Shown here: in pieces, positions 13,437-33,909 of the stretch
Position numbering within the stretch: position 1 is the first letter of the stretch
Layout of the letters: every line of letters begins with the position of its first letter
NCBI GenBank assembly: GCA_049522255.1
Contig: JBEKOA010000001.1
Span: 4,216-68,215, forward strand
Source of the DNA: Terracidiphilus sp.
GTDB taxonomy: Bacteria; Acidobacteriota; Terriglobia; Terriglobales; Acidobacteriaceae
DNA: 64,000 bases
Direction: 5' to 3'
Notes under the pieces: generated by a model
Databases searched by the model: none
Told to the model about the DNA's origin: nothing
What the model saw: only the letters and a program-made list of their open reading frames with translations
Position numbers and translations under genes: made by a program

Positions 13437-15650
13437 TTATGAAGTCGGCGCTGCTTTGATGGGAGTGCGTTCGACGCGCACTGCGCATTGCTTGAAGTTG
13501 GGTTCGCGCGAAATGGGATCGAACGCGCTTTGCGTAATCTGATTGGCGTTGCTCTCGACAAAGTGAAAAGGAAGAAAGACCTGTCCTGGAGCAACGATCT
13601 CGGTAATGCGCAACTCAACCTTGCTGACCCGGCCACGCGCAGAGAGCACATCCACGCGATCGTGGGGACGCAAGCCCAGACGCTTCGCGTCCACCGGATT
13701 CATCTCCAGCCATGCGCGCGGAGAAAGGCGCTGCAAAATGTCGATGCCTCCGGTCTTGGTGCGGGTATGCCAGTGTTCTACGGTGCGCCCGGTATTGAGC
13801 ACAAAGGGATATTCTTTGTTGGGTTGCTCTGGAAAAGGAGCCCAGACGGTGGGAATCAGCCTGGCGCGTCCGTCTTCGGTCTGATACTGGCCATCGGTGT
13901 ATAGTCGCCGCGGCACAGTCGGGTCCAAAAAGGCTCCTTGCGGGTAGGGCCACTGGATTCCACCGTTGGACTCGATGGCATCGTAAGTCATGCCGGAGTA
14001 GTCGCAGAGCCTTCCTGCCGAGACGCGGCGCCACTCTTCAAATGCGTCGGTAGGCGTATTCCAGCCGGGGAATAGCTCTTCGCGGCAACCCAATCGTTCG
14101 GCGACAGCAAGAAAGATTTCGAAGTCGCTGCGTGCCTCGGCGGGTGGAGCGACAGCGGCATTGGCTTTGCTGGCGCGGCGTTCTGAGTTGGTGTAGGTCC
14201 CTTCTTTTTCTCCCCAAATGGCAGCAGGCAATACAAGATTGGCTAACTCGGTGGTGGGGGTTGGATGAAATCCATCCTGCACCACAAGAAAGTCCAGATT
14301 ACTCAGCGCATGTTTAAGTACATCGATATTTGGAAAGGAGACCAGGGGATTGGTGCCAATGATCCATAGCGCGCGAATCCTTCCCGCGACAGCAGCTTCG
14401 ATAATGTCAGGATAAGCAAGGCCACGTTGGGTGGGAATGCGCTCGATGGGAATGTTCCATAGGCGAGCCAGTTCTTTGCGGTCCACTTCAGATTCAAATT
14501 TCCGATACCCTGGGAGACCCGAAGCAAAGCCAGCCTCACGAGTGCCCATGGCGTTGCATTGTCCAGTGATGGAGAAAGGCGAAGCCCCGGCGCGCCCGAT
14601 GTTACCAGTAATCAGGGCAAGGTTGTTGATGGCATTAACGGTCTCGGTGCCCTTGGTGCTGTGATTCACCCCCATCGTCCATCCGATGAATGCAGCCTTG
14701 GCATTGCCGTAAAGTAGTGCCGTCCTATGAATCAGTTCCGGCGTGAGACCTGTGATCTTGGCTGCATGCTCCAGCGTGCAGGATTCGAGTGACGCGCGCA
14801 ATTCTTCAAATCCCGTAGTGTAATGCTCGACATATTGCTTGTCATAGAGATCCTCGTTGATGATGATGCGTAGCATGGCATTGATAAGTGCGAGGTCCGA
14901 TCGCGGCTTCAGGGGGAGATATACATCGGCCATCATCGCCGTTTTGGTAACGCGCGGATCGGCCACTATCATCGTTTTGCCGCGATTGCCTTCCAGGCGC
15001 GTACAGAGAATCGGATGATTCTCCGCAACATTGGCTCCGATGAGCAGAATGACATCCGCGGTCTCCAGATCGGCATAGGCGCCGGGCGGTCCATCGCTTC
15101 CAAAAGAACGCTTGTAGCCGGAGACTGCGGTGGACATACAAAGCGTGGTGTTACCGTCATAGTTGCGCGTGCCCAATCCCAGTTGCACCAGCTTGCCCAG
15201 CGCATAGAACTCTTCCGTAAGCAACTGGCCGGTACTGATGACGCCAACCGAATCAGGGCCATATTTGATTTGCGCGGCGCGAAAGCGCTCCACCATAGTT
15301 TCCACCGCTTCGTCCCAACCAACGCGTACTAGCTCATTGTTTTTTCGCAGCAACGGATACCTGGCGCGATCCTTAGCCTCGATTGTGTAGTGCTCTGACA
15401 AGCCTTTTGGACAAAGCTTGCCAAGGTTGACCGGGTGATCGCGATCCCCGCGAACGCTGACAACTTTTCCCTTGCTTACACCTAACTCCATTCCGCAACC
15501 TACAGAGCAGTATCCGCAGGTGCTTTTCACCCACGTTTCCGCATGTTTGCGGGTCGAGGTGAAGCCGAGCACCGGGTCAATCCCGTAACTGTATTTAGCG
15601 GAGAGGTTGTCCAGCCCGCTTTTGCGTAATACCCAGTCCAGCACACTCAT
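13437..15650 (-). CDS. nasA: Cytoplasmic Mo-bisPGD nitrate reductase catalytic subunit (NasA/NarB-type)
   Basis: CGYCSVGC..LCPKG [4Fe-4S]; NTTLCM Mo-Cys; GQCNAMGTRE; EKEGTYTNSERR; ATGA overlap with the upstream gene fixes the start at 15650; no Tat motif. Confidence 0.88.
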   Translation of the reverse strand: MSVLDWVLRKSGLDNLSAKYSYGIDPVLGFTSTRKHAETWVKSTCGYCSVGCGMELGVSKGKVVSVRGDRDHPVNLGKLCPKGLSEHYTIEAKDRARYPLLRKNNELVRVGWDEAVETMVERFRAAQIKYGPDSVGVISTGQLLTEEFYALGKLVQLGLGTRNYDGNTTLCMSTAVSGYKRSFGSDGPPGAYADLETADVILLIGANVAENHPILCTRLEGNRGKTMIVADPRVTKTAMMADVYLPLKPRSDLALINAMLRIIINEDLYDKQYVEHYTTGFEELRASLESCTLEHAAKITGLTPELIHRTALLYGNAKAAFIGWTMGVNHSTKGTETVNAINNLALITGNIGRAGASPFSITGQCNAMGTREAGFASGLPGYRKFESEVDRKELARLWNIPIERIPTQRGLAYPDIIEAAVAGRIRALWIIGTNPLVSFPNIDVLKHALSNLDFLVVQDGFHPTPTTELANLVLPAAIWGEKEGTYTNSERRASKANAAVAPPAEARSDFEIFLAVAERLGCREELFPGWNTPTDAFEEWRRVSAGRLCDYSGMTYDAIESNGGIQWPYPQGAFLDPTVPRRLYTDGQYQTEDGRARLIPTVWAPFPEQPNKEYPFVLNTGRTVEHWHTRTKTGGIDILQRLSPRAWLEMNPVDAKRLGLRPHDRVDVLSARGRVSKVELRITEIVAPGQVFLPFHFVESNANQITQSAFDPISREPNFKQCAVRVERTPIKAAPTS

Positions 15651-17284
15651 GCAGACTCCATGGAGAGATATTCGGTTGCAATGTTGCTGGGAACGACACT
15701 GACAAAGAAGAGATAGCGGCTCACGAATTCGCCGGCAATCAGAAGAAGTGCAACGGGAACAGCCATCCACCGAGTCTGCGCAAAAGGTACAAGCAACAGG
15801 CCCGCGCTGAGCAAAAGGAGGCGCAGCATCAAGAGATTCGAGAGTACGGTGAAAAGCAGGATGAAGACTCCGCGACGCTCATGCGCAGAGGAGCGGGCCA
15901 GCCAAACCATTTTCATGCCGGCGGCAAGAATCGTCGCGATACCGGTAACGATTACCGCCCGTTGCGTAAACGTGGCTGTTCCACTGAGAATGTTGGCGCC
16001 CGCAGAGCCGAGCAGCATGGCGGTCAGAAAGAACTCCACAATAGTGAATGGGGAGTTCCACCCTGGGCGTCCCGGCGCCAAATACAATCGTGCGCTGCAG
16101 CCGACGCCGGCTATGCCAAAGATGACAGTCAATCCACCTAAGACTGTAACTGTATGAGCAGGCAGCATCGCATTGATCTCGCGAAGAAGCAGAACGAGAG
16201 AGGTAGTGAGTTTTTGGAAGACGGCCATGTGTCTAAGATCGAAGCCACCGGGCAAGGTGATCCACAGCGCCGCGGAATACGCAGCCGCGGCGTTGGCAAA
16301 GAGAGTAAACATCAAGACTTCCCGGCTGAGCCATGATCGACGCCACATCTTCAAAGCGCGCACGGCATGAATCGGTCGCCCCAGATGCAGCGTTGAGGCT
16401 CCGAGCGCTACGGTTGCGATCATCAGCGCAACGAGTGCAGCCACGCAGTGCAGGTGAGCACCAAAGATCTGCATCAGCCATATGGAAGAAAATGCGCCTA
16501 CCGAAAGCTGTGTCAGAACGGTCATTACCACCAGCGGCCAATGAGCATGCTCGGGACGAAGACGGTTGAGATCCACTTTGGCGGAATCGCGTGGCATGCG
16601 ATTGGGCAGGGTGATACGCGTTGTGGATAGACTGTCGTCTGCCGAGGGCATCCCTGGCGCGTTTGCGTCGGTGCGATATTGTTCACGCCATTCCGCAGTG
16701 CGCACAATTTCAATGCGAATGGCGCCTTCCGGACAGGCAGAGACGCAGGCTGGATTTTGCCCCTCGGTCAGACGCCCGTAGCACATATCGCATTTACCGA
16801 CGACGCCGCGCTCCGGGTTGTACTGGGGCACGCCGTAAGAACAGTTCCAGGTGCAATATTGGCAACCAATGCAGATATCCGCGTTGTGGCGCACGATTCC
16901 AGTGGGGCCGTCTTTTGAGTAAGCGTCGACCGGGCAGCCCGTCATGCAAGTCGGCTCCAGACAGTGATTGCAGCCGATAGAGAGATAGTTGCGCTGGGTA
17001 TCCGGATAAGTGCCGCCTTCGATTTCGCCGACCCGCCGCCACAGAATGTCGGCAGGATTTCCGTTCTGCTCGTTGCAAGCCACCACGCAACACTTGCAGC
17101 CGATGCACTTGGTCATGTCGAAATGAAAACGATATTGTTCGCCCGGTCCCGGTGGAGGCGGAAGAGGAACATCGACTCCGCTGCCGCACAACTGAACCAA
17201 CCCCTGCCCGGAATTTTGGGCAGAGGTCGTCAGGTTGAAGGCATCGTCGCCGGCCTTGACCCGTTCGAGTAAGGGAAGTTCCAT
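15647..17284 (-). CDS. Fused 4x[4Fe-4S] DmsB/NrfC-type subunit and DmsC/YnfH membrane anchor
   Basis: CIGCKCCVVAC, CNHC..TC..GCP, CIGCQYCTWNC, CDMC..PACVSACP, then ~8 TM with HWPLV.MTVLTQ and S.LHLGRP..A.RA...WRRSWLSRE; GGAG RBS before ATG 17284. Confidence 0.85.
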   Translation of the reverse strand: MELPLLERVKAGDDAFNLTTSAQNSGQGLVQLCGSGVDVPLPPPPGPGEQYRFHFDMTKCIGCKCCVVACNEQNGNPADILWRRVGEIEGGTYPDTQRNYLSIGCNHCLEPTCMTGCPVDAYSKDGPTGIVRHNADICIGCQYCTWNCSYGVPQYNPERGVVGKCDMCYGRLTEGQNPACVSACPEGAIRIEIVRTAEWREQYRTDANAPGMPSADDSLSTTRITLPNRMPRDSAKVDLNRLRPEHAHWPLVVMTVLTQLSVGAFSSIWLMQIFGAHLHCVAALVALMIATVALGASTLHLGRPIHAVRALKMWRRSWLSREVLMFTLFANAAAAYSAALWITLPGGFDLRHMAVFQKLTTSLVLLLREINAMLPAHTVTVLGGLTVIFGIAGVGCSARLYLAPGRPGWNSPFTIVEFFLTAMLLGSAGANILSGTATFTQRAVIVTGIATILAAGMKMVWLARSSAHERRGVFILLFTVLSNLLMLRLLLLSAGLLLVPFAQTRWMAVPVALLLIAGEFVSRYLFFVSVVPSNIATEYLSMESA

Positions 17285-17931
17285 CGATAGCTCCATCGTG
17301 TGCGGCACGCGCAATGTGCGAAGAGGACTGGTGTCAGGGACACGCCGCCCTCGACCGATGACGGTTGCTCTCAGACGTTCGAGCCCCTGTAATTTGTTGG
17401 TGGTTTGGCGATCAGGCCAGGCTCTTCGCGGAGCCAACTGGAAATCACTTCAGCTTGGGGAAGCATCCGGCACACTGGGCCAGACCTTCGCGGTGTGAGC
17501 TCTCTCAAAAGAGTCTCATTCCGCGTGGAGTGATTGCGTTGAGCATAGCGTCAAATAAGAATCAATGCAAGTAGATTCTGGTTTTGAACAATCTGTGCAG
17601 AAATCTCATTCAATATGCGTGGAAAAGCACCTTCCACTCTTGTATTCCCGATTGGATGCGTGTTAAAGCGAAGTCGGAGAGTTTCCCCATTCACCTTGCC
17701 CCGGGCATTCTTCGGGAGGTGATGATTGGGTCATTGCTTCTCTTCAGGCTTCTATCGAGTGTGACCAACGGACTATGTTTTTGCCGATCTTTAATCATGC
17801 GATACTGGAGTTGAAGATTGCTTCGAGTCCGCTGGATTCATGCGGAAATGGAGCGACGCAACTTTGCGCTGCCCGCTCTTCGTATCTTCCATCTGTGTCC
17901 ATTTCTTCTAACCCAGCACACGGAGAGACCC

Positions 17932-19611
17932 ATGCCAGGGGCGAATTTTGAAGGTCTACGGGTTCTGAGTCTGGAAGCACGCCGCGCGAATGAAGTTGCC
18001 AAGCTGATTCACACCTATGGTGGCGAGCCGCTTACGGCGCCGGCGATGCGGGAGATTCCTCTCGAAGAAAATCATCCGGTGATTGAATTCGCTCAGGCCC
18101 TGATGCGGGGAGCCTATGATCTGGTGATCTTCACAACCGGGGTGGGCGTCCGTTCTCTGGTCAAGATCGTCTCCGAGCGTCTGGATCGCGAGCAGTTTCT
18201 TGCTGCCCTGCGCGGCGTGAAGATTGCCGCCCGCGGTCCCAAGTCCTCCAGCGCGTTGCGGGAGTTGCAGATCCCCATCACGGTAGTTTCTCCAGAGCCA
18301 TTCACGTGGCGTGCTCTGATGCCGGCGCTTGAAGAGAAGCTGGGCCCAGAGATGGATGGCATGAACATCGCCGTGCAGGAGTACGGAACATCAAATCCAG
18401 AGTTGCTGACAGCGCTGGCAGAGAAGAGCATTTCAATTACCCGTCTTCTTGTCTATCAATGGGCATTGCCGGAAGACATTCAGCCCTTACGTGAAGCCGT
18501 GCTTGCTCTTGCGCATGGACACGTCGATATCGTGCTCTTCATGAATGCCGGGCAGGTCATGCATCTGTTTCTCATGGCCGAACGCATGGGCTACACAGAG
18601 GCGCTGCATGAAGGACTCCGCTCTACGCTGATCGCTTCGATTGGTCCCAGCACGACCGAAGGAATGTCTGCCTACGGACTGCACCCAGATTTTGAGCCAA
18701 CGCAATCGAAGATGGGCTTCCTGATCAACGAGCTGGCGCAACATGGGCGGTCTCTTTTGAATAAAAAACGCTCCGATGCAGCGTTACATGTTACCAGCAC
18801 TCCACCACCTCCCGTCAGTCCGCTGCTGCAGAGCGGCGCCCAGCCTATTGCAACGGTAGAGCCTGCCATCCCCTCGCCAGTCGATTTTCTGCACGAGATA
18901 GGCAGCCGCATGGCAGCCTCAGACCCGCTGCACACGGTGCTTGATCGCATAGTTGACTTTGCCTGTACAGTCATCAACTGCGATTCTTGTTTTGTCTACG
19001 TGCTGGAAGACAATCAGCTGGTTTTGCGCGCATCCAAAACCCCCCATGCGGATCTGGTGGACCATCTGGGAATCTGGCTTGGCCAAGGCATTACCGGGTG
19101 GGTTGGATGGCATCGCGAGCCGGTTGCGATCTCAGCGAATGCACTGCAGGATCCACGCTTCAAGCGCTTTCCAAATGTGCCGGAAGATGCGTTTGAGGCG
19201 TTTCTTTCCGTTCCAATTCTTTGTCGCGGGAAGCTGGTCGGAGTCATTAATTTGCAGCATCGCAGGCCCTATCAGCATGCAGAAAATGAAGTCCGGCTGC
19301 TGACGACGATCGGCCATCTGGTGGGCGCGGAGTTGGAGCGGGCGCGCCTGGAAACCGAAAACGTCCAACTCTCAGATCGCCTGGAATCGCGCAAACACAT
19401 TGAACGCGCCAAGGGAGTATTGCAGCGCGATTTCGCCCTGGATGAAGAGGCTGCCTACAAGGCCATGCAGCGGGAGAGCCGTCAGCGTCGCAAATCGATG
19501 CGCGAGATTGCCGAGGCAATTATTCTCAACGAAGATCTGCGCAAGAGCCGTTTGGGAGAAGCAAATAGACCGGCAGCGCATGAAGATGGTATAAGGAAAG
19601 CCAAGAATTGA
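17932..19611 (+). CDS. HemD(uroporphyrinogen-III synthase)-like, GAF and ANTAR three-domain fusion
   Basis: N-terminal HemD pattern (IFTTGVGV, ARGPK, VQEYG, SIGPST); GAF (DSCFVYV..LVLRAS..GITGWV..AFLSVPI..GVINL); ANTAR (RKHIERAKGVL..EEAAY..MQRESR); GGAG RBS. Confidence 0.88.
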   Translation: MPGANFEGLRVLSLEARRANEVAKLIHTYGGEPLTAPAMREIPLEENHPVIEFAQALMRGAYDLVIFTTGVGVRSLVKIVSERLDREQFLAALRGVKIAARGPKSSSALRELQIPITVVSPEPFTWRALMPALEEKLGPEMDGMNIAVQEYGTSNPELLTALAEKSISITRLLVYQWALPEDIQPLREAVLALAHGHVDIVLFMNAGQVMHLFLMAERMGYTEALHEGLRSTLIASIGPSTTEGMSAYGLHPDFEPTQSKMGFLINELAQHGRSLLNKKRSDAALHVTSTPPPPVSPLLQSGAQPIATVEPAIPSPVDFLHEIGSRMAASDPLHTVLDRIVDFACTVINCDSCFVYVLEDNQLVLRASKTPHADLVDHLGIWLGQGITGWVGWHREPVAISANALQDPRFKRFPNVPEDAFEAFLSVPILCRGKLVGVINLQHRRPYQHAENEVRLLTTIGHLVGAELERARLETENVQLSDRLESRKHIERAKGVLQRDFALDEEAAYKAMQRESRQRRKSMREIAEAIILNEDLRKSRLGEANRPAAHEDGIRKAKN

Positions 19612-19622
19612 TCGCAACTTGC

Positions 19623-19718
19623 TTGTGATCTCTATCGAGTTGCGCTAGTCTAACCCTAAGAGTGAGACAAGGCTGTCTCCTCGGGTTCTCTCTTCCCCGC
19701 ACCACGCCGTGCCTGGGG
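19623..19718 (+). promoter_or_regulatory. Putative sigma70 promoter and candidate ANTAR-type tandem hairpins in the nirA leader
   Basis: TTGTGA-N17-TAGTCT (19623-19651); GAGAC-AAGGCT-GTCTC (19664-19679); GCAC-CACGCC-GTGC (19699-19712). Confidence 0.5.
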
Positions 19719-19886
19719 CCTTCAGACCACAATCCCTTTACTCCATGCTCCGTGATGAGCCTTGAATTCTCCGCATTGTTTGCGGCATTCATCGGGTCTC
19801 AACGCCGCTTTGCGCACGCGCACACAAGCGCTTTCAACGGGCAGTCCGGTCCTCCTCATGGATGGACTACTGGAAGGAGTGATGGC

Positions 19887-21665
19887 ATGGAAACGCTGGA
19901 TACCCTCAATTCCCAGGATTTCACGGCAGTACAGAAGGAGTATCTTCTCGGCATCTTTTCGACTGCCACGCATCATGGCTTGCGTCCTTTCGCGGGCCAC
20001 ACCGCGACCGGGCTGCTGACCAACGATTCAACTCTTGGCTCGATCAATCTGGCGGAACCGCAAGAGGAGACCTACCACGGAACGCCAGTCTCCGATCTCT
20101 GCCGCGAAGAGCGATGGAAGTATGAGCAGAATCCTCTTGATATCTGGGACAAGCTGCTGGCTCATGCAGATGAAAATCGAACACCGGCAGCGGATGATCT
20201 TTTCCGCTTCAAATTTCACGGGCTATTTTACGTAGCTCCCGCGCAGGACTCCTTCATGCTCAGGCTGCGCGTCCCAGGCGGCATTCTTACCGCTCACCAA
20301 ATGCGCGGCCTGGCGGCGATGGCCTCCGATTGGGGATCGGGCCGCGTGGACATTACGACCCGTGCCAACCTGCAGATTCGCGAATTCCAGCCGAAAGAAA
20401 TTGTTCGCGTGCTCAACAAGCTGCAATCGCTTGGGCTTACCTCGCGCGGTTCAGGCGCAGACAATATTCGTAACATCACGGCTTCGCCGATCACCGGACT
20501 CGATCCCACTGAACTCTGCGATGTGGCGCCGCTGGCCGATGCGCTTCACCATTACATTCTGAATAGCCGCGATCTGTATGGGTTGCCGCGCAAATTCAAC
20601 GTAGCCTTCGACAATGGAGGCGCCATCAGCGTCGTTGCCGATACCAACGATATTGGCTTTGTTGCTGTCCGCGTTGGTGAAGGGCGCAGCCTTCCCACGG
20701 GCGTTTATTTTCGAGTATTGTTGTGCGGCATTACTGGGCACAAACAGTTCGCTACCGATTGCGGCTTGCTGTTACGCGCCGATCAGACCGTGGCTGTTGC
20801 CGCTGCCATGATACGTGTCTTCAGCGAGAACGGCGACCGAACGGATCGCAAAAAAGCGCGCCTGAAATACCTGGTGGATCGCTGGGGCGTCGACAAGTTT
20901 CTGGATGAGACTGAAATGCGTTTGTCCTTCCCGCTGATCCGCGTTCCGATCAATGAGTGCGAGCCGCGCCTGCCGATTGATCGCGCCGGCCACATCGGTG
21001 TTCACGCGCAACGTCAAGACGATCTGCACTATATTGGGATCTCCGTGCCGGTTGGCCGTCTTCCTGCCGCGCAGATGCTGGCCCTGGCTGACATAGCCAG
21101 CAGTTACGGCAGCGGGGAGTTGCGACTCACGGTCTGGCAGAACCTGTTGATCCCAAACATTCCAACCGCTCATCTGGATGCGACGTTGGCTGCGCTTCAA
21201 GCTGTCGGTCTTGATTGCACGGCAGGGACTGTTCTGCGAGGCACTGTTGCCTGCACAGGAAATCGCGGCTGCAAGTATGCATCGACCGACACCAAGACAC
21301 ACGCGGTTGAATTGGCCAGTCTGCTTGATGCACGATTCAAGATTGAACAGCCGGTCAATCTTCATGTGACCGGTTGTCCCCACTCCTGCGCACAACATTA
21401 CATCGGCGATATCGGCCTGCTCGGCATGAAGGTTGGCGGCGCCGAAGGCTATCAAGTGGTAATCGGTGGAGGCTCGGATCTGGACAAAGGCCTGGCGCGC
21501 GAGCTAATCCCTGCTATCGCCTATAGTGATTTGCCCCCCATGATGGAACGGCTCTTTGCCGCCTATATCGAACAGCGGAAGAGAGATGAGTCCTTCCTGG
21601 ATTTCAGCCGTAGACACAGCACTGCGGAGTTGCAATCGTTTTGCGCGGCAAAGGAGCGGAGATAG
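19887..21665 (+). CDS. nirA: Siroheme-[4Fe-4S] nitrite reductase, NirA family
   Basis: FKFHGLF, MLRLRVPGG, ITTRANLQIR, GADNIRN, LPRKFN, ACTG..GC, TGCPHSCAQH; GAAGGAG RBS. Confidence 0.88.
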   Translation: METLDTLNSQDFTAVQKEYLLGIFSTATHHGLRPFAGHTATGLLTNDSTLGSINLAEPQEETYHGTPVSDLCREERWKYEQNPLDIWDKLLAHADENRTPAADDLFRFKFHGLFYVAPAQDSFMLRLRVPGGILTAHQMRGLAAMASDWGSGRVDITTRANLQIREFQPKEIVRVLNKLQSLGLTSRGSGADNIRNITASPITGLDPTELCDVAPLADALHHYILNSRDLYGLPRKFNVAFDNGGAISVVADTNDIGFVAVRVGEGRSLPTGVYFRVLLCGITGHKQFATDCGLLLRADQTVAVAAAMIRVFSENGDRTDRKKARLKYLVDRWGVDKFLDETEMRLSFPLIRVPINECEPRLPIDRAGHIGVHAQRQDDLHYIGISVPVGRLPAAQMLALADIASSYGSGELRLTVWQNLLIPNIPTAHLDATLAALQAVGLDCTAGTVLRGTVACTGNRGCKYASTDTKTHAVELASLLDARFKIEQPVNLHVTGCPHSCAQHYIGDIGLLGMKVGGAEGYQVVIGGGSDLDKGLARELIPAIAYSDLPPMMERLFAAYIEQRKRDESFLDFSRRHSTAELQSFCAAKERR

Positions 21666-24380: not shown

Positions 24381-25616
24381 ATGTCGTTTCGTTCTGTGTT
24401 TGTGGCCGTCGTCATTGCGTTTGCTCTCATACTTTCCGCCTTCCTTGTCAATCGAGCCCGCCCCAAGGTAGAGACCGACCAGCCTACCGCCGACTTTGTT
24501 CGCGCGTCCGGCAAGTGTGCCGAGTGCCATGCCCGGCTTCAATACTCCGTCGTTCACGAATACGAGATGTCCGTACATGCGAAGAAAGGCGTGAATTGCC
24601 TGGACTGTCACGAACCCGGCCCCGGCCAGCAGAAGGTGGATCACCACGGCTTCGTGATCAGTACTCACTTGACGGCAGGCAACTGCCGCTCCTGTCACGA
24701 AGGCATCTATCAGGAGTTTCTGCGCAGCCGTCACGCCGCGCCCAGTTGGGCGGCCGTGCATGGCGAAGCGGGATTGAGTGCGGAGCAGGTTGCCTTCAGC
24801 GAGCAGTTCCAGCCCGGGGGAACGAAGCGTCCGCCCAACCCACTTACGGTTCCTGAGGGGCATCCAGCAATCACTTCGGGTTGCGAACAGTGCCACGCCA
24901 TTGGCAAGCCGAACGACGACGGCACGATTGGCAGTTGCACCGAATGCCACTCGCGCCACAGCAACTCTGTTGCTCTCGCCCGCCTGCCCACCACCTGCGG
25001 CCAGTGCCATATGGGGCCCGACCACTCCCAGGTTGAGATCTATAACGAGTCAAAGCACGGCGTGATGTTCGCCGCCCAAAGCAACCTTCTTCGGCTCGAC
25101 GCCGATCCTCGCACGTTGACGACTCGCGACATGTTCGTGCCAACCTGCGCGACCTGCCATATGAGCGGCATCAACGGCCTGAAGGTTACTCACAATCCGT
25201 CCGATCGACTCGGCTGGTATCTCGCCGACGCTGTCACGACCCATCGTCCAAACTACCTTCAGGCCCAGATCAATATGAAGCAGGTCTGCACCCAATGCCA
25301 CACCCCGGCGCGTATCGACCGAGTCTACGACCAGGGTGAAGAGGTCATCAAGGGCACAAACGCCAAGGTTCTTGCCGCCAAGGACATCATGGATGGATTG
25401 CACAAAGACGGAACCCTGACGGGCCCTCCGTTTAGCCACCCGATTGACTTTACCTACTTCAATCTGTGGCACTACGACGGCCGCACCAGCAAGCACGGAG
25501 CCTTCATGGGAGGCGCCGACTTCGTCCAATGGCACGGCAATTACGAAATGCTGTCGAAGACCGTCGAACTTCAGCACGACGCCGACGAACTACGGAGAGA
25601 GCATGCTCACAAGTAA
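24381..25616 (+). CDS. Membrane-anchored octaheme c-type cytochrome, hydroxylamine-oxidoreductase (HAO) family, reductive type
   Basis: 8 CxxCH (CAECH, CLDCH, CRSCH, CEQCH, CTECH, CGQCH, CATCH, CTQCH); HMGPDHSQ.EIY.ESKHG and DGR..HGAFMGGADFVQWHG HAO signatures; N-terminal TM. Confidence 0.85.
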   Translation: MSFRSVFVAVVIAFALILSAFLVNRARPKVETDQPTADFVRASGKCAECHARLQYSVVHEYEMSVHAKKGVNCLDCHEPGPGQQKVDHHGFVISTHLTAGNCRSCHEGIYQEFLRSRHAAPSWAAVHGEAGLSAEQVAFSEQFQPGGTKRPPNPLTVPEGHPAITSGCEQCHAIGKPNDDGTIGSCTECHSRHSNSVALARLPTTCGQCHMGPDHSQVEIYNESKHGVMFAAQSNLLRLDADPRTLTTRDMFVPTCATCHMSGINGLKVTHNPSDRLGWYLADAVTTHRPNYLQAQINMKQVCTQCHTPARIDRVYDQGEEVIKGTNAKVLAAKDIMDGLHKDGTLTGPPFSHPIDFTYFNLWHYDGRTSKHGAFMGGADFVQWHGNYEMLSKTVELQHDADELRREHAHK

Positions 25617-26547
25617 ACTGCTCCTTCGCATTCAGAAGATCATTCTCGACCCGCGCCTGCTGTGGGTGCACGATCTCACGCTTTGGGTCGAGCTGTTTGT
25701 CACCGTGAATCTGGCGATTCTTGCCGCGGACATTTACCTCGCACATTCGGTGAATCATTTTCAAAAGGCGGCGGAGTATATCCCGCTCTACTTTTCAATG
25801 GGCTCGCCGGTAGTGCTCGCGGCCGTGATCGCCCTGCGCTGGATAGGTCGATTTGAAGCTCCTTGGCGCGACGTAGGCTACCTGGTCGGTGGTCTTTCAG
25901 TGCTGGTCGGGTTAGGCGGAGTGCTTTACCACTTGGAGAGCCGGTTCTTTCTGGATCGCACGTTGAAGAGCCTCACCTACGCAGCGCCTTTTGCCGCGCC
26001 GCTCGCGTATACCGGCCTCGGCTTTCTCCTCTTGATGAATCGCATGGTGGCTGCGCGAAGTGCCGAGTGGGCACGTTGGGTGATCCTCCTGGCGCTGGGC
26101 GGCTTCTTCGGGAACTTCGTTCTGTCGTTGACCGACCACGCATCCAATGGCTTCTTTGCAAGAACCGAATGGATTCCCGTTGTTTCTTCGGCATTTGCTA
26201 CCGGATTCCTGATCGTCCTCCTCATGGCGGTGGTGACGCGCCGATTTCTCGACGCTTGCCTTGTGGTAATGTTCGCGCAGGCCTTCGTCGGTGTTTTGGG
26301 ATTCTGGTTTCATCTGCGCGCGAATCTGTTCGAGCCCGGCAGCAGCGTCTTCGACAAACTCGTCAATGGCGCTCCCCCAATGGCTCCGCTGCTATTTCCG
26401 AATCTCGTTGGACTGGCTCTGATCGGACTGTGGGCTTTGATTCCTCATTTACCGGAAGCGCCATCAAGCCGTTCCTGGCTGGGTGCAACTTACGCGTGGG
26501 TGCATCCCGGAGTGGAAACGGGTGCGTCAGATGGGCACGTTCGCTGA
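25603..26547 (+). CDS. Integral membrane protein with internal duplication and 4 conserved His; probable HAO partner
   Basis: Overlaps the hao stop; two halves each with H..N.F...E.IP, VG..G..(Y/F)HL and AP..AP. Confidence 0.75.
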   Translation: MLTSKLLLRIQKIILDPRLLWVHDLTLWVELFVTVNLAILAADIYLAHSVNHFQKAAEYIPLYFSMGSPVVLAAVIALRWIGRFEAPWRDVGYLVGGLSVLVGLGGVLYHLESRFFLDRTLKSLTYAAPFAAPLAYTGLGFLLLMNRMVAARSAEWARWVILLALGGFFGNFVLSLTDHASNGFFARTEWIPVVSSAFATGFLIVLLMAVVTRRFLDACLVVMFAQAFVGVLGFWFHLRANLFEPGSSVFDKLVNGAPPMAPLLFPNLVGLALIGLWALIPHLPEAPSSRSWLGATYAWVHPGVETGASDGHVR

Positions 26548-26631
26548 TCAGGCATTTCCATTGGCGCTTACTCGCATTCAACTTGCAGCCTGGAGATGTT
26601 CGACGCTGGAGCGTCGTGACCAGGCAGAAAC

Positions 26632-27174
26632 GTGAGAACTAACTTGGCGGTACAAATAGGCGCAAAACCGGACAGCGGATTCGACGATCCAATTGGGATG
26701 CTAGTGGACTGCCACCGCAGGGTCGAAGGCTTTCTTGGGATTTTATGCGCTGTAGTTGAGCGCGCCAAAAACAGAGAATTGACCGATGAAGAGAAGAGCG
26801 CGGTTCAATCGGCTCTTCAGTATTTCCAACTGGGTGGGCAGCGGCATACTGCCGATGAGGAGGAGTCTCTGTTTCCTCGGTTGCGGGGAAAACCAAATCC
26901 AGCAATCGACGCGATTGCCGGGCTGCAATCGGACCATCGCCGCGCCAATCGGTTGCATGATTCGATCGAGAGGATATATCTGACCTGGATCTCCAGCGGA
27001 AGACTGACACCCGAAGAGACAGAACGACTACTGTCTCAGACAGGTGAACTCAAAGAACTCTACTCAGCCCATATATTGATGGAGGAAACCGTCGTGTTCC
27101 CCTACGCAGCGAAGGTATTGGACGGCGAGGTTATTGCCAAAATTGCCGCCGAATTCAAGATGCGGAGAAAATGA
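26632..27174 (+). CDS. Hemerythrin-like (HHE) di-iron protein
   Basis: H..VE, HTADEEESLFP, DHRR, HILMEETVVFP. Confidence 0.85.
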   Translation: MRTNLAVQIGAKPDSGFDDPIGMLVDCHRRVEGFLGILCAVVERAKNRELTDEEKSAVQSALQYFQLGGQRHTADEEESLFPRLRGKPNPAIDAIAGLQSDHRRANRLHDSIERIYLTWISSGRLTPEETERLLSQTGELKELYSAHILMEETVVFPYAAKVLDGEVIAKIAAEFKMRRK

Positions 27175-27192
27175 CGGCGATTCTTCAATTGA

Positions 27193-27208
27193 AGTGACCA
27201 AAGTCGCT
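27193..27208. promoter_or_regulatory. Copy 2 of the 16-bp operator (AGTGAC-CAAA-GTCGCT)
   Basis: Centred -41.5 from a TACGCT -10 candidate at 27230, upstream of ric. Confidence 0.65.
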
Positions 27209-27254
27209 GTGGTTCATAATCCGAAGTCCTACGCTGTGGTTAAAGGAGATCGAA

Positions 27255-27974
27255 ATGACCCCAAACCCACAGACCGTTCGCGAAATCGCCCTGGAACAGC
27301 CATCTTCAATAAGAGTTTTTGAGAGATTTGGAATCGACTATTGCTGCGGGGGCCGCAAGCCTCTCAGCGAAGCGTGTATGGCCGGAAATCTTGAGGTAGA
27401 CATTGTGATCGCCGCGTTGGAAGCGGCTGCAAAGGCGCCGGATTCAGAAGTTGAAAACTGGTCCGGTAAGTCGTTGGAGAGCCTGAGCGCGCATATCGTC
27501 ACCACGCACCATGCCTACGTAAAGCGAGAACTGCCTAGACTCGCCGTGCTCGCCGAGAAGGTTGTGAATCGTCATGGCGCAACAAAGACGGAATTGCCGG
27601 GAATCGCTGGAACACTAGCGCGGCTCGACGGGGAACTCACGCAGCATCTGGCGAAAGAAGAAGCCGTCCTGTTTCCCTACATTGCGGATCTTGAACGGGC
27701 CGTTTCGAATCATGCCGCGAAGCCACGCAGTTGCTTCGGGACGGTTGCCAACCCGATCGCGATGATGACGCAGGAACACGATGCTGCCGGAACGCTCCTC
27801 GCTGAAATTCGTCGTCTCAGCCACAATTTCACCACGCCTGAGGATGCCTGCCCTACCTTTCATGCCTTCTACGGCGGGCTAAAGGAATTTGAACAGGACC
27901 TGCACCAGCACATTCATTTGGAGAACAACATACTGTTTCCGCGTGCAATAGAGATGGAGAAAGCCGCATCCTAA
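27255..27974 (+). CDS. ric: Iron-sulfur cluster repair di-iron protein (RIC/YtfE/ScdA)
   Basis: GIDYCCGG, HH.YVKRELP, HLAKEEAVLFP, EHD..G, HIHLENNILFP. Confidence 0.93.
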   Translation: MTPNPQTVREIALEQPSSIRVFERFGIDYCCGGRKPLSEACMAGNLEVDIVIAALEAAAKAPDSEVENWSGKSLESLSAHIVTTHHAYVKRELPRLAVLAEKVVNRHGATKTELPGIAGTLARLDGELTQHLAKEEAVLFPYIADLERAVSNHAAKPRSCFGTVANPIAMMTQEHDAAGTLLAEIRRLSHNFTTPEDACPTFHAFYGGLKEFEQDLHQHIHLENNILFPRAIEMEKAAS

Positions 27975-28007
27975 TCGATACTGGCCCAACTCAATAGCCA
28001 GGAAGAG

Positions 28008-29807
28008 TTACTCGTCGACTGGGGCTGTCTTCCTCGCCCCGCGGAACGGTGGACGAACGTGCAGGACGCGTTCCCGGCTGCGCTCCTCAGAGAGGTTGCG
28101 GGCGCGCGCACTCAGCATGTCATCGAGCGAAATCATGCCTAAGATTCTGCGTTCTTCGCCGCTATCCACCACCGGCATCCTCGTGAAACCCGTTTCTGCC
28201 ATGCGATAAACTAGAGTTCGCAGCGACTCATCTGCAACCGCCACGACGGGGTCGCGGCGTGCAATGTCGGACAGCAAGGCGCGATCGCTACTGCACTTGG
28301 CCAAATCCTTGCGGGTGATTACACCCCTCAGGCGGTGATTTGCATCGATCACGGGATAAAGGTGCTGCCCGCGAGAAGGATGGCCATTCTTCAACATTCT
28401 CAGTGCATCGTCGAGCGTGCCGCTCCCCTCGAACGCGAGTATTTGTGTACGCATCACTTCGCTAGCGAATAGCACCTCCAGCGGATCCACGCTGTACTCG
28501 CGGCTGAGATGAAAGCCGCGTCGAGCCACCTTCTCAGTCAGGATCGAACGCTTCAACACCAACACCGTGAACGTGTGCGCAATGACGGCGGCTACGATGA
28601 GTGGCAGGATCATGTTCACGTCGTGCGTCAGCTCGATTGCGAATACGATTCCGGTGAATGGCGAACGCATGGTGCCGGCAAGGATCGCTCCCATGCTGAC
28701 AAGTGGCCAGAAGCCGGGTCCGGCCGCGGGAAGAAACAAAGCTTCAAGGCCGCCCAATGCGCCACCCATCATCAGCAACGGGGCAAGAACCCCGCCCGAT
28801 GTTCCCGATCCCAACGATACCGCCCAGATAGTGGACTTCACCAGCAGGATTCCCAGCAGCAGGCCAATGGCGCCGTTGCCCTCAAGGAGAGTGGCAATTG
28901 TGTCGTAACCAACGCCGAGGGCCTGCGGAAAGATCATGCCTCCCAGCCCGATCACCAGGCCTCCGATAGCCGGCCACCACATCCAGTGGATCGGCAGCTT
29001 TGCGAAGGCATCCTCGGCGGCGTAGACGGCGCCGGTAAGCAATGCAGATAACGCACCCGCGAGCAGTCCGCAGACGACGCAGCCCATGAGCCCGCCAGGA
29101 CCAATGAATACAGAATGCGCCGGTGTAGGAAAGAGCGGGCCGAGACCGATCAGGTATCGCCGTGCTGCGCATGCAGTTGCACTGGCCAGCGCCACCGGAA
29201 TCAGACTGCGCGGCTTCCACTCGAAGAGCAGCAACTCGACCGCAAGAAGAATCGCCGAGAGTGGCGCGGCAAATGTGGCCGACATGCCGGCCGCCGCTCC
29301 GGCCACAAGCAAGGTCTTTCGTTCAGCGCTGGTGAGATGAAAAAACTGTGCGATCATCGACCCGAACGCGCCGCCCGTCATGATGATGGGGCCCTCCGCG
29401 CCGAATGGCCCGCCGGTTCCTATTGAAAGCGCTGCCGAGAGCGGCTTCAGAATTGCCAGCTTCGGATGCACCCTGCTGCCGCCGATCAAGATCGATTCGA
29501 TGGCCTCCGGTATGCCATGCCCGCGAATCCGTTCTGATCCGTAGCGTGCCATCAGGCCAATGATCAACCCGCCGGCTACTGGCACCAGAACAGCCCACCA
29601 GCCAAGGTGATTTTCCGCGGGTGAGACCAAGCTGCTTCCGATTCGCTGATAGTAGAAGAGATTGGTGAAGAACCCGATCAGCCGTAGCAGTGCAAGCGCA
29701 ACGTAGGCGCCGATGAGACCGATCACCATCGCCAGGCCGGCGATTGGCAGCACGCGACTCGTAGTTGTGAAATCGCCCAGCTTCTTAAGTTCCGCACAGA
29801 GTTTCAT
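28008..29807 (-). CDS. ClC-family anion channel/antiporter with a CBS pair
   Basis: GHGIP, GAEGP, GSGTSGGVLAP, FAIELT; C-terminal CBS (HLYPVID, RMPVVD). Confidence 0.9.
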   Translation of the reverse strand: MKLCAELKKLGDFTTTSRVLPIAGLAMVIGLIGAYVALALLRLIGFFTNLFYYQRIGSSLVSPAENHLGWWAVLVPVAGGLIIGLMARYGSERIRGHGIPEAIESILIGGSRVHPKLAILKPLSAALSIGTGGPFGAEGPIIMTGGAFGSMIAQFFHLTSAERKTLLVAGAAAGMSATFAAPLSAILLAVELLLFEWKPRSLIPVALASATACAARRYLIGLGPLFPTPAHSVFIGPGGLMGCVVCGLLAGALSALLTGAVYAAEDAFAKLPIHWMWWPAIGGLVIGLGGMIFPQALGVGYDTIATLLEGNGAIGLLLGILLVKSTIWAVSLGSGTSGGVLAPLLMMGGALGGLEALFLPAAGPGFWPLVSMGAILAGTMRSPFTGIVFAIELTHDVNMILPLIVAAVIAHTFTVLVLKRSILTEKVARRGFHLSREYSVDPLEVLFASEVMRTQILAFEGSGTLDDALRMLKNGHPSRGQHLYPVIDANHRLRGVITRKDLAKCSSDRALLSDIARRDPVVAVADESLRTLVYRMAETGFTRMPVVDSGEERRILGMISLDDMLSARARNLSEERSRERVLHVRPPFRGARKTAPVDE

Positions 29808-33057: not shown

Positions 33058-33909
33058 TCAATGCAGTAGAGAACCTACCCGTTGCCGCATTTTACCGAGT
33101 GCCAGCAGGATGCCGTGGAGCAGCGCCTCCGGGCGAGGCGGGCATCCGGGGATGTAGACGTCAACCGGAATCACCGCATCCACTCCGCCCAGCGAGGCGT
33201 AGTTGGCGCCGAAGATGCCTCCACTGATGCCGCATGCGCCCACGGCGACCACGATCTTTGGATCAGGCGTCGCGGCCCAGACCTTGCGCAATGCCAGTTC
33301 CATGTTGCGCGTGACCGGGCCGGTGACCAGCAGCATGTCGGCATGACGCGGCGATGCCACGAAGTGAATGCCAAATCGTTCAATGTCATGTACCGGATTA
33401 TTCAACGCAACGATCTCCTGCTCGCAGCCGTTGCACGAGCCTGCATCGACTTGGCGAATCGCAAGCGACCGTCCGAGCAGGTTTTGAATTGCCGCCGCGA
33501 TTCGCTTGCCGGGCTCATCAAGGACCGGGCCACATGTGGACGATTGCAGCGTGGCATGGGTGGCATCGGGATTGAGCGTGTATTTGGCGGTCAGCACGAG
33601 ATCGCGGCGATCGCCGGCCGCAAGCTCGAACTTTCGCGTCATGCGCACTGCACTGTCTGCATTGGCCGCCTCGCATTCGCCGCAAAAAATGCACCGGCCG
33701 TAGTCAACGGTGACCTGTCGCAGGCCGTCGGAGTCGCGGAGGGCGATGGCTCCAGTGGGGCAAGCCTCGGCCGCGGGACGCGCATCGTGCCAAATTTCAA
33801 ACTCAAACTCAGGGCATCCGCGAAACTGCTCGGCCAGGCGCGGTGAAACGTTTGGATAGTCGGCCGTCGCCGTGCCGATGCTGAACGATTTTTGGAGGAT
33901 CTTGAACAT
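33058..33909 (-). CDS. ehrS: Ehr/group-4 small subunit (NuoB/HycG-like) fused to an N-terminal ferredoxin (NuoI/HycF-like)
   Basis: DAGSCNGCE, SPRHAD, GACG.SGG, PGCPP; N-terminal ACPTGAI and CIFCGEC. Confidence 0.85.
   Translation of the reverse strand: MFKILQKSFSIGTATADYPNVSPRLAEQFRGCPEFEFEIWHDARPAAEACPTGAIALRDSDGLRQVTVDYGRCIFCGECEAANADSAVRMTRKFELAAGDRRDLVLTAKYTLNPDATHATLQSSTCGPVLDEPGKRIAAAIQNLLGRSLAIRQVDAGSCNGCEQEIVALNNPVHDIERFGIHFVASPRHADMLLVTGPVTRNMELALRKVWAATPDPKIVVAVGACGISGGIFGANYASLGGVDAVIPVDVYIPGCPPRPEALLHGILLALGKMRQRVGSLLH

Follow-up and report, generated by a model that had tools for sequence, protein, structure and literature searches.

How do members of the Acidobacteriaceae control nitrate assimilation, and does leader RNA take part? 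The Acidobacteriaceae are among the most abundant bacteria of acid soils and peat; to our knowledge, the regulation of nitrate assimilation in this family is essentially unstudied. The question is raised by a divergent nitrate-assimilation cluster in a 64,000-nucleotide (nt) stretch of a Terracidiphilus sp. contig (the window, in what follows), which originates from a peat metagenome. Here, a gap of 275 nt, the nirA leader region, separates nirA from the gene for a putative regulator that joins HemD-like, GAF, and ANTAR domains. The answer proposed is that most of this gap (~230 nt, ~19658-19886) forms a cis-acting ANTAR-type RNA switch for the nitrate-assimilation regulon of Terracidiphilus-like Acidobacteriaceae, a reading to which we assign a probability of roughly 0.6.

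A preliminary description of the sequence had singled out three elements of the gap: a promoter, TTGTGA-N17-TAGTCT; a hairpin, GAGAC-AAGGCU-GUCUC (here termed H1); and, 19 nt on, a second hairpin, GCAC-CACGCC-GUGC (H2). Direct reading confirms all three. Both hairpins belong to the minimum-free-energy fold, and when prefixes of the growing window transcript were folded from 19658, their pairing probabilities were 1.0 (H1) and 0.98 (H2). In the window alone, the hairpin pair is no more than chance would supply. Both strands were scanned for two hairpins 1-30 nt apart, each with a stem of at least 4 base pairs (bp) including at least 3 G-C pairs, and a hexaloop with G at position 4 (G4). This returned 9 tandem pairs, against 15.1 +/- 4.5 in first-order Markov simulations; the folding z-score of the whole leader is only -1.9. 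It is the comparison with relatives that gives the pair its weight.

For that comparison, 80 loci were fetched that encode relatives of the regulator at 54-94% identity (Terracidiphilus, Edaphobacter, Granulicella, and other Acidobacteriaceae); cultured strains among them are Granulicella rosea DSM 18704 (L062), Edaphobacter sp. HDX4 (L046), and Acidobacteria bacterium AB60 (L027). The regulator gene is directly followed by nirA in 27 of them, and these leaders align from the promoter onward, with TTG and TAnnnT blocks at fixed spacing in all aligned nirA leaders. The predicted transcription start, about 19657-19660, would place H1 at the extreme 5' end of the RNA. Across the 27 leaders the H1 and H2 partners are paired in 88% of alignment cells, versus 39-53% with slid partners. 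The outer stem of H1 covaries (GC 13 / AU 11 and GC 14 / AU 7), and the H2 stem keeps its pairs through GC to AU and UA changes at 57:70. A linker of 12 nt (19683-19694) connects the two. The preliminary description had named orthologous leaders as a check on its hairpins; both are conserved there and covary, and its picture of a structured, non-coding leader 3' of a conserved promoter is borne out.

It had also compared the loops with the ANTAR code, A at position 1 (A1) and G4, and read A1 in H1 and C1 in H2. Half of this code stands. Position 4 is G in 24 of 26 H1 loops, whose other five positions vary, and in all 26 H2 loops. A1 does not hold: position 1 is A in 7 and U in 17 of the 26 H1 loops, and C in every H2 loop (CNNGCC, with C1, G4, and C6 invariant). 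Two further pairings were considered and discarded. Kissing between the H1 and H2 loops (GGC:GCC) is not conserved across H1 loops, and a long-range helix between UGAGAC, the 5' strand of H1, and GUCUCA at 19796-19801, noticed by eye, is conserved in close relatives only.

To which gene does the element belong? Searched with a covariance model of H1 plus H2, the window gives a single match (73 bits, E = 4e-19) and the 80 loci give 34 strong ones; wherever a matching locus holds nirA, the match lies upstream of that gene. In eight loci an extra 3 kb lies between the regulator gene and nirA; there the match sits ~230 nt 5' of nirA, not after the regulator gene, and the element therefore belongs to nirA. 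It also stays with nirA where nirA is divergent from the regulator gene. (The nirA frame is open for 75 codons 5' of the start, from GTG 19662, a peculiarity of the window. The notion that the leader encodes an amino-terminal extension of NirA was rejected: an in-frame stop occurs within 130 nt upstream in 30 of 42 orthologues.)

The best-conserved block of the leader is a third hairpin, H3, which the preliminary description overlooked. Alignment with distant leaders, in which nirA is divergent from the regulator gene, gives the pattern GCUC / CNNGAN / GAGC; the hexaloops of H1, H2, and H3 are all kept in the window and in orthologues. The window contains only two perfect matches, one in each of two leaders: that of nirA, and that of a divergent operon whose first gene encodes a fused iron-sulfur (Fe-S)/DmsC-like protein and whose second is nasA. 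The window and the 80 loci together (~0.77 Mb, both strands) contain 82. All 82 lie 60-280 nt 5' of a start codon: that of nirA (42), of the Fe-S/DmsC-like gene of the nasA operon (37), or of a gene for a NirB-type nitrite reductase (3). In these 82 the G4 is fixed by the search pattern itself; it is also kept in the variant H3 loops CGCGUU and CUCGCC, outside the pattern. Position 1 is always C. (One-mismatch matches at 33513, 38022, 41410, and 50944, all within long open reading frames, were dismissed as chance.)

A second hairpin regularly precedes H3. A script found one 5' of H3 in 73 of the 82 cases, with G at loop position 4 in 65; these 65 hairpins end 21-36 nt before H3, and their loop is a hexaloop where nirA or nirB follows but a heptaloop where the nasA operon does. 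What the nirA, nirB, and Fe-S/nasA leaders share is H2 plus H3; H1 is confined to nirA leaders. The preliminary description thus had the right leader and two conserved hairpins, and missed one member of the regulon-wide unit. In three genomes (L041:903-916, L042:328-341, and L044:942-955) nirA is replaced, and H2 plus H3 precedes a gene for a NirB-type NAD(P)H nitrite reductase. The RNA signature therefore tracks the pathway, not the gene family.

The reverse search leads back to the regulator. Among metagenome contigs, H3 joined to CUUGAAU identifies 99 loci, 79 of them with nirA directly downstream. Where such nirA-linked loci extend at least 2.5 kb 5' of the motif, a HemD-GAF-ANTAR gene is present in 51 of 52. 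(About 14 matches with neither nirA nor the regulator, mostly inside long open reading frames on unrelated contigs, were regarded as chance.) Motif and HemD-GAF-ANTAR gene are linked in both directions. The element is almost certainly a conserved leader RNA specific to this regulon.

What could H3 do there? Directly 3' of it stands H4, a stable hairpin with 100% and 99% of cells paired in 19 leaders and a pairing probability of 0.95-0.99. In some relatives a U-rich tail follows the H4 core (UGUUUGAUUUUGG in L007); in the window this tail is not U-rich (CAUUCAUC). Beyond H4, a short segment termed anti-H3 pairs with 19752-19761, comprising H3 loop and 3' strand. This extends H4 to a long hairpin (19752-19805) and excludes H3. 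In the transcript prefixes, the probability of H3 is 0.94 with the transcript end at 19765, 0.64 at 19795, and 0 at 19806 and beyond, and the extended hairpin reaches 0.91; forcing H3 to form costs +6.6 kcal/mol. Most of 30 orthologous leaders, folded at full length, likewise give H3 a probability near 0. Among 19 close orthologues, 94-97% of the cells of the alternative helix are paired, versus ~36% with slid partners. Such a hairpin, conserved but not predicted to last unaided, and exclusive of a helix farther downstream, resembles a protein-stabilized antiterminator hairpin, in the manner of the P2 hairpin of ANTAR targets. A switch between H3 and anti-H3 is on balance the favored interpretation.

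The second leader repeats this architecture. Its H2-like stem covaries (36 leaders): 96% of cells are paired and 14 show double changes, a count reached in 0 of 500 shuffles. In nasA-type leaders the GCGAAGAG of H3 pairs with a conserved segment ~95-105 nt downstream, CUCUUCGC. This helix is paired in 90% of cells, versus ~50% with slid partners, and shows compensatory changes in L017 (AUGAG / CUCAU), L031 (A-U), and L033 (U-A). A C-rich, G-poor tract, CCAAACCACCAACAAAUUACA, follows H3 in this leader type. A small alternative hairpin, CGCA-CAU-UGCG, stands directly after the anti-H3 of the window. For the Fe-S/DmsC-like gene, the second AUG (17284) is a more likely start than 17296: the arrangement GGAGC, 6-7 nt, AUG/GUG/UUG, then GAACUUCC is conserved in 34 orthologues.

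Features of the nirA leader, the second leader, and the adjoining genes, in window coordinates.
Feature	Position	Strand	Description	Basis
Regulator gene	17932-19611	+	559 residues; HemD-like (HEM4), GAF, and ANTAR domains	Pfam
nirA promoter	19623-19651	+	-35 TTGTGA 19623-28; 17-nt spacer; -10 TAGTCT 19646-51	conserved blocks
H1	19660-19682	+	GAG-U-GAGAC / AAGGCU / GUCUC-CUC, hexaloop; core GAGAC 19664-19668, loop 19669-19674 (A1; G4 = 19672), GUCUC 19675-19679; outer stem GAG 19660-62 / CUC 19680-82, U19663 bulged; 5+3 bp	covariation
H2	19695-19718	+	CCCC-GCAC / CACGCC / GUGC-(CU)-GGGG, hexaloop; core GCAC 19699-19702, loop 19703-19708 (C1; G4 = 19706), GUGC 19709-19712; extension CCCC 19695-98 / GGGG 19715-18, CU 19713-14 bulged; 4+4 bp	conservation, covariation
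H2-H3 linker	19719-19746	+	unstructured, 28 nt; 12 C, 1 G	read directly
H3	19747-19760	+	GCUC / CGUGAU / GAGC, hexaloop; C1, G4 (19753), A5; 4 bp	pattern matches
H4	19763-19791	+	UGAAU-UCU-CCGCA / UUGUU / UGCGG-C-AUUCA	pairing in relatives
Anti-H3	19795-19805	+	GG-U-CUCA-A-CGC	minimum-free-energy fold
Local hairpin	19844-19867	+	GUCC-GG-UCC / UCCUCAU / GGA-U-GGAC	compensatory changes
nirA Shine-Dalgarno and start codon	19872-19889	+	GGAAGGAG 19872-79; start codon 19887-89	tblastn orthologue alignments begin at AUG
nirA	19887-21665	+	NirA family protein (808 bits)	
Flavodoxin/FAD/NAD reductase, then MOSC protein	3' of nirA	+		
Second leader	17282-17570	-	leader for Fe-S/DmsC-like gene, nasA, and MFS transporter	same regulon
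Second-leader promoter	-35 at 17570-17565	-	TTGCAT-N17-TATGCT	
H2-like hairpin	second leader	-	UCUGGC / CCAGUGU / GCCGGA, heptaloop; G at position 4	
Second-leader H3	17434-17421	-		exact pattern match
Second-leader anti-H3	17325-17318	-	CUCUUCGC	conserved
Second-leader Shine-Dalgarno and AUG	GGAG 17294-91; AUG 17284	-		
Fe-S/DmsC-like gene	15647-17284	-	fused protein; first gene of nitrate reductase operon	
nasA	15650-13437	-	NasA-type molybdopterin nitrate reductase	
MFS transporter gene	13395-12112	-		

Is the neighboring protein a plausible reader of this RNA? The regulator matches three Pfam families: HEM4 (2e-35), GAF (2e-17), and ANTAR (2e-16). Its ANTAR profile score (PF03861) is 59.9 bits, above the curated cut-off of 27.3, and this part of the protein, together with the preceding coiled-coil helix, aligns with Rv1626, EutV, AmiR, and NasR. 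The crystal structure of EutV bound to RNA shows that a flipped G4, held by residues R142, K149, E160, and Y164, makes the only base-specific contact; the stem is read via its backbone, and A1 has no base-specific contact (PMC8934654). All four residues are identical in the regulator by pairwise alignment, whereas Q, R, and S stand in place of EutV residues R168, M172, and R177. (For EutV, the numbering of the PDB chain and that of the paper were taken to differ by 2 residues, as judged from the sequence ERKIIEKAK.) The preliminary description had named the adjacent ANTAR protein as the binding partner, and that protein has kept an intact domain and the residues that hold G4. It is likely that this putative regulator binds the leader RNA.

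Canonical ANTAR targets consist of two hexaloop hairpins with A1 and G4, the second of which overlaps the 5' base of a terminator (PMC3369931; PMC10783516). H1, H2, and H3 are stem-paired hairpins of this kind, and H3 is mutually exclusive with the anti-H3 helix, as the second hairpin of ANTAR targets is with the downstream helix. An invariant G4 with a free or different position 1 is compatible with ANTAR recognition, because the flipped G4 is the sole base-specific contact in the EutV structure, yet it departs from the A1 that defines the family.

Several points weigh against an ANTAR-type switch. Loop position 1 is mostly occupied by C or U, where canonical targets have A. Between H2 and H3 the linker measures 28 nt in the window and 21-36 nt in other leaders; this compares with 2-25 nt in curated ANTAR targets, and EutV-mediated antitermination is abolished by extending the linker by 20 nt (PMC8164766, PMC8934654). 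The 12-nt H1-H2 linker falls inside the curated range. The H3 stem is invariant and has no covariation of its own; the alternative helix of nirA leaders shows almost none, with one double change among sequences that are too alike. One clade (L021, L023-L027, L029, L030, L032, L036, and L040) lacks H3 in its nirA leader and keeps H1 and H2 there; H3 is kept in its nasA-operon leader. The H1-H2 pair may therefore act alone in some genomes.

Two more points concern output and expression. A terminator scan found no stem followed by a U-tract in 19612-19886, as the preliminary description had noted of a strong poly-U terminator, and the extended hairpin is followed only by CGCUUUG. This absence is weak evidence, because canonical terminators are barely enriched in the window at large (68 found, versus 58 expected from shuffles). 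Actinobacteria likewise have few predictable terminators after the ANTAR-target motif (PMC8164766). Finally, the leader occurs in RNA libraries as low-depth contigs only, in three peat or wetland metatranscriptome runs, with ends that cannot be placed and DNA as a possible source.

Some observations attach to these points. In the nirA leaders of L021 and L040, a near-copy of the H2 5' strand (GCCCUGCAC) lies ~45 nt downstream, inside a GC-rich hairpin, and other loci of that clade have a GC-rich hairpin at the same place. This suggests that, in the variant, the H2 3' strand has an alternative partner in the copy. Of the metatranscriptome contigs, one from wetland spans 19648-19865, its 5' end within the predicted -10 box; contigs of relatives in two other RNA runs match the H3-H4 block only.

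How would an ANTAR-type switch operate? During leader transcription, H3 would be present for ~35-45 nt of further synthesis. An activated dimer or oligomer of the regulator would bind the flipped G4 of H2 and of H3, and H1 might offer an extra recruitment site. The bound regulator would keep H3 closed, so that the extended hairpin could not form and nirA would be expressed. What the GAF and HemD-like domains sense would presumably be nitrate, nitrite, or a cue related to tetrapyrroles. The least certain step is the action of the extended hairpin, which might attenuate transcription via a non-canonical or factor-dependent terminator; mRNA processing or stability, and translation, are other possible outputs. 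Transcription attenuation is put forward tentatively, at somewhat less than even odds. The linker between H2 and H3 is C-rich and G-poor in orthologues as in the window, and it is speculation that such tracts, which flank H3, would suit loading of Rho.

A bolder form of this proposal makes the system a distinct acidobacterial branch of ANTAR regulation. Here, a three-hairpin, G4-only code (with C1) would be read with no intrinsic terminator at all: the protein would gate Rho at the C-rich tracts, or block a processing or attenuation hairpin. The HemD-like and GAF domains would tie the synthesis of nitrite reductase to a tetrapyrrole signal (a sirohaem precursor) as well as to nitrogen status. 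Taken with all its parts, this form is unlikely, at perhaps the odds of one in five.

Less probable still is that something else reads the conserved RNA, either a metabolite, with the leader as a riboswitch for nitrate, nitrite, or a signal of nitrogen status, or a different RNA-binding protein, and that the regulator is merely co-located. The loops do depart from the A1/G4 consensus, and several hairpins with a long-range alternative helix also resemble the expression platform of a riboswitch. Nor did the ANTAR target named in the preliminary description find a counterpart among Rfam covariance models: no family matched at gathering thresholds in the whole window, and nothing relevant did even at E <= 10 in 17300-20000. 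The same Rfam result counts against a known riboswitch. So does the layout of the conserved parts, which are three separate hairpins of 4-9 bp with one conserved loop G each and no ligand pocket. A different reader, moreover, leaves unexplained the two-way linkage of motif and ANTAR gene, and the G4-binding residues are kept.

Of closely similar, low probability is a translational output, in which the switch opens or closes the nirA ribosome site by way of CUCCU (19852-56) or of a pyrimidine stretch at 19738-44, immediately 5' of H3. The preliminary description had suggested the former, through pairing with AGGAG (19875-79). Both segments are present, but masking of the ribosome site by CUCCU:AGGAG was rejected, as the pairing is not conserved and the stretch sits in a covarying local hairpin, with compensatory changes among the window, L001, and L022 (GUCC:GGAC versus UUCU:AGAA). 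Other points speak for a translational output: the minimum-free-energy fold of the window pairs UUACUCC (19738-44) with GGAGUGA (19876-82); some distant leaders (the L051, L049, L058 group) have a complement of the H3 3' half beside their Shine-Dalgarno sequence or their start codon; and actinobacterial ANTAR targets act on translation (PMC8164766). Yet the hairpins lie 125-225 nt 5' of the ribosome site, and in thermodynamic models with H3 forced and its loop blocked, Shine-Dalgarno accessibility showed no consistent shift in 30 nirA leaders and a mean of 0.37 going to 0.39 in 34 nitrate-reductase leaders. Control of translation, as first proposed, finds no backing in these models.

A constitutive structural leader, for example a stabilizing 5' hairpin with processing sites and no regulated switch, would agree with the predicted place of H1, classic for such hairpins, and with the great stability of H4; it is quite improbable, for it leaves unexplained that H3, the hairpin with the strongest conservation, is not expected to persist, that each hairpin has a single conserved loop G, and that one motif recurs in three leaders of the pathway that are not homologous. 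That GCTC-N6-GAGC and GCAC-N6-GTGC are DNA palindromes for a dimeric transcription factor (operator or roadblock) is very improbable: the invariant H3 stem leaves RNA and DNA indistinguishable at that site, but the central six bases are asymmetric (C1, G4, A5) and stand in sense orientation in 82 of 82 matches, the H1, H2, and H2-like stems covary with pairing kept, a complementary segment some distance away varies together with the H3 loop, and the sites lie 40-100 nt 3' of the promoter.

The regulator itself carries a label that is probably misleading. Public sources name it and its homologues (more than 2,600 at E <= 1e-20; those with names are Acidobacteriota or Terracidiphilus) 'uroporphyrinogen-III synthase'. 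The HemD part (17932-18740) lies below every NCBIfam equivalog cut-off (best 141 bits, versus 233) and counts as a HemD-like fold only, and the protein ends in GAF and ANTAR domains; hence the doubt about the label. The HemD part also matches PRK07239. A literature search, incomplete in coverage, yielded no account of a protein that joins HemD, GAF, and ANTAR domains, nor of regulation by ANTAR proteins in Acidobacteria.

Other genes in the window add context. The product of the Fe-S/DmsC-like gene is a DmsB-type 4Fe-4S protein fused to a DmsC-like membrane anchor. For a NasA-type enzyme such a partner is unusual; it hints at a quinol-linked electron supply. Farther downstream, 24381-29807 encodes a multi-haem cytochrome c (eight CXXCH by eye; Pfam Multi-haem_cyto); a polytopic membrane protein without annotation; a hemerythrin-domain protein; a ScdA/RIC-type di-iron repair protein; and a CLC channel with CBS domains. 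The region looks like a nitrosative-stress or nitrite-handling neighborhood.

Together, these results turn the locus into a concrete, testable regulon: one regulator family, and a 14-nt RNA signature on the nirA, nirB, and Fe-S/nasA leaders. Conservation of G4 without A1 agrees with the crystal structure, in which G4 is the only base read by the protein, and suggests that covariance searches requiring A1 may miss whole phyla. Moreover, an ANTAR-type switch without a recognizable intrinsic terminator invites work on its output, which could reveal a new mode of action for ANTAR proteins.

Which known systems does this one resemble? Nitrate assimilation is already known to be governed by ANTAR proteins and dual-hexaloop leaders in two cases, Klebsiella NasR and Pseudomonas NasT/NalA (PMC3369931, PMC10783516). 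The nasF leader of Klebsiella oxytoca and the nirBD leader of Pseudomonas putida belong to the same pathway, with the ANTAR gene in the cluster. They have small hexaloop hairpins with an essential G at position 4, and a distal hairpin that excludes a downstream helix. Their sensors differ: a receiver (REC) domain with a NasS partner, or NIT, there; HemD-like and GAF domains here. Their leaders have two hairpins, loop A1, and a U-tract terminator, whereas the present ones have three hairpins, C or U at loop position 1, a 28-nt C-rich H2-H3 linker, and no U-tract.

EutV and the eut leaders of Enterococcus faecalis share the residues R142, K149, E160, and Y164 with the regulator, and in either system recognition would need no more than the backbone of the stem and a flipped G4. 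EutV differs in its need for a short P1-P2 linker, in the three residues exchanged here, and in an unrelated pathway. Actinobacterial ANTAR-target RNAs (Mehta and co-workers, PMC8164766) resemble the nirA leader in coming from a high-GC phylum, in their relaxed loops (A1 and G4 in only >50%), and in having few predictable terminators. Among the actinobacterial RNAs, many overlap the start codon or the ribosome site and act by repressing translation; the motif described here stands well upstream, with no predicted effect on the ribosome site.

The sensor has a parallel of its own. In Streptomyces and Mycobacterium, nirBD and nitrate assimilation are regulated by NnaR, which also begins with a uroporphyrinogen-III-synthase-like domain; this domain is reported to lack HemD enzyme activity (PMC6277429). 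The output of NnaR is a DNA-binding domain, in contrast to the GAF and RNA-binding ANTAR domains found here, and the likeness of the sensors is known from the shared Pfam family only. The system described here is best classed as a variant of the ANTAR type: it shares its logic and pathway with NasR and NasT, and stands apart in its sensor, in a loop code of G4 only, in the number of its hairpins (three), and in a leader without a canonical terminator.

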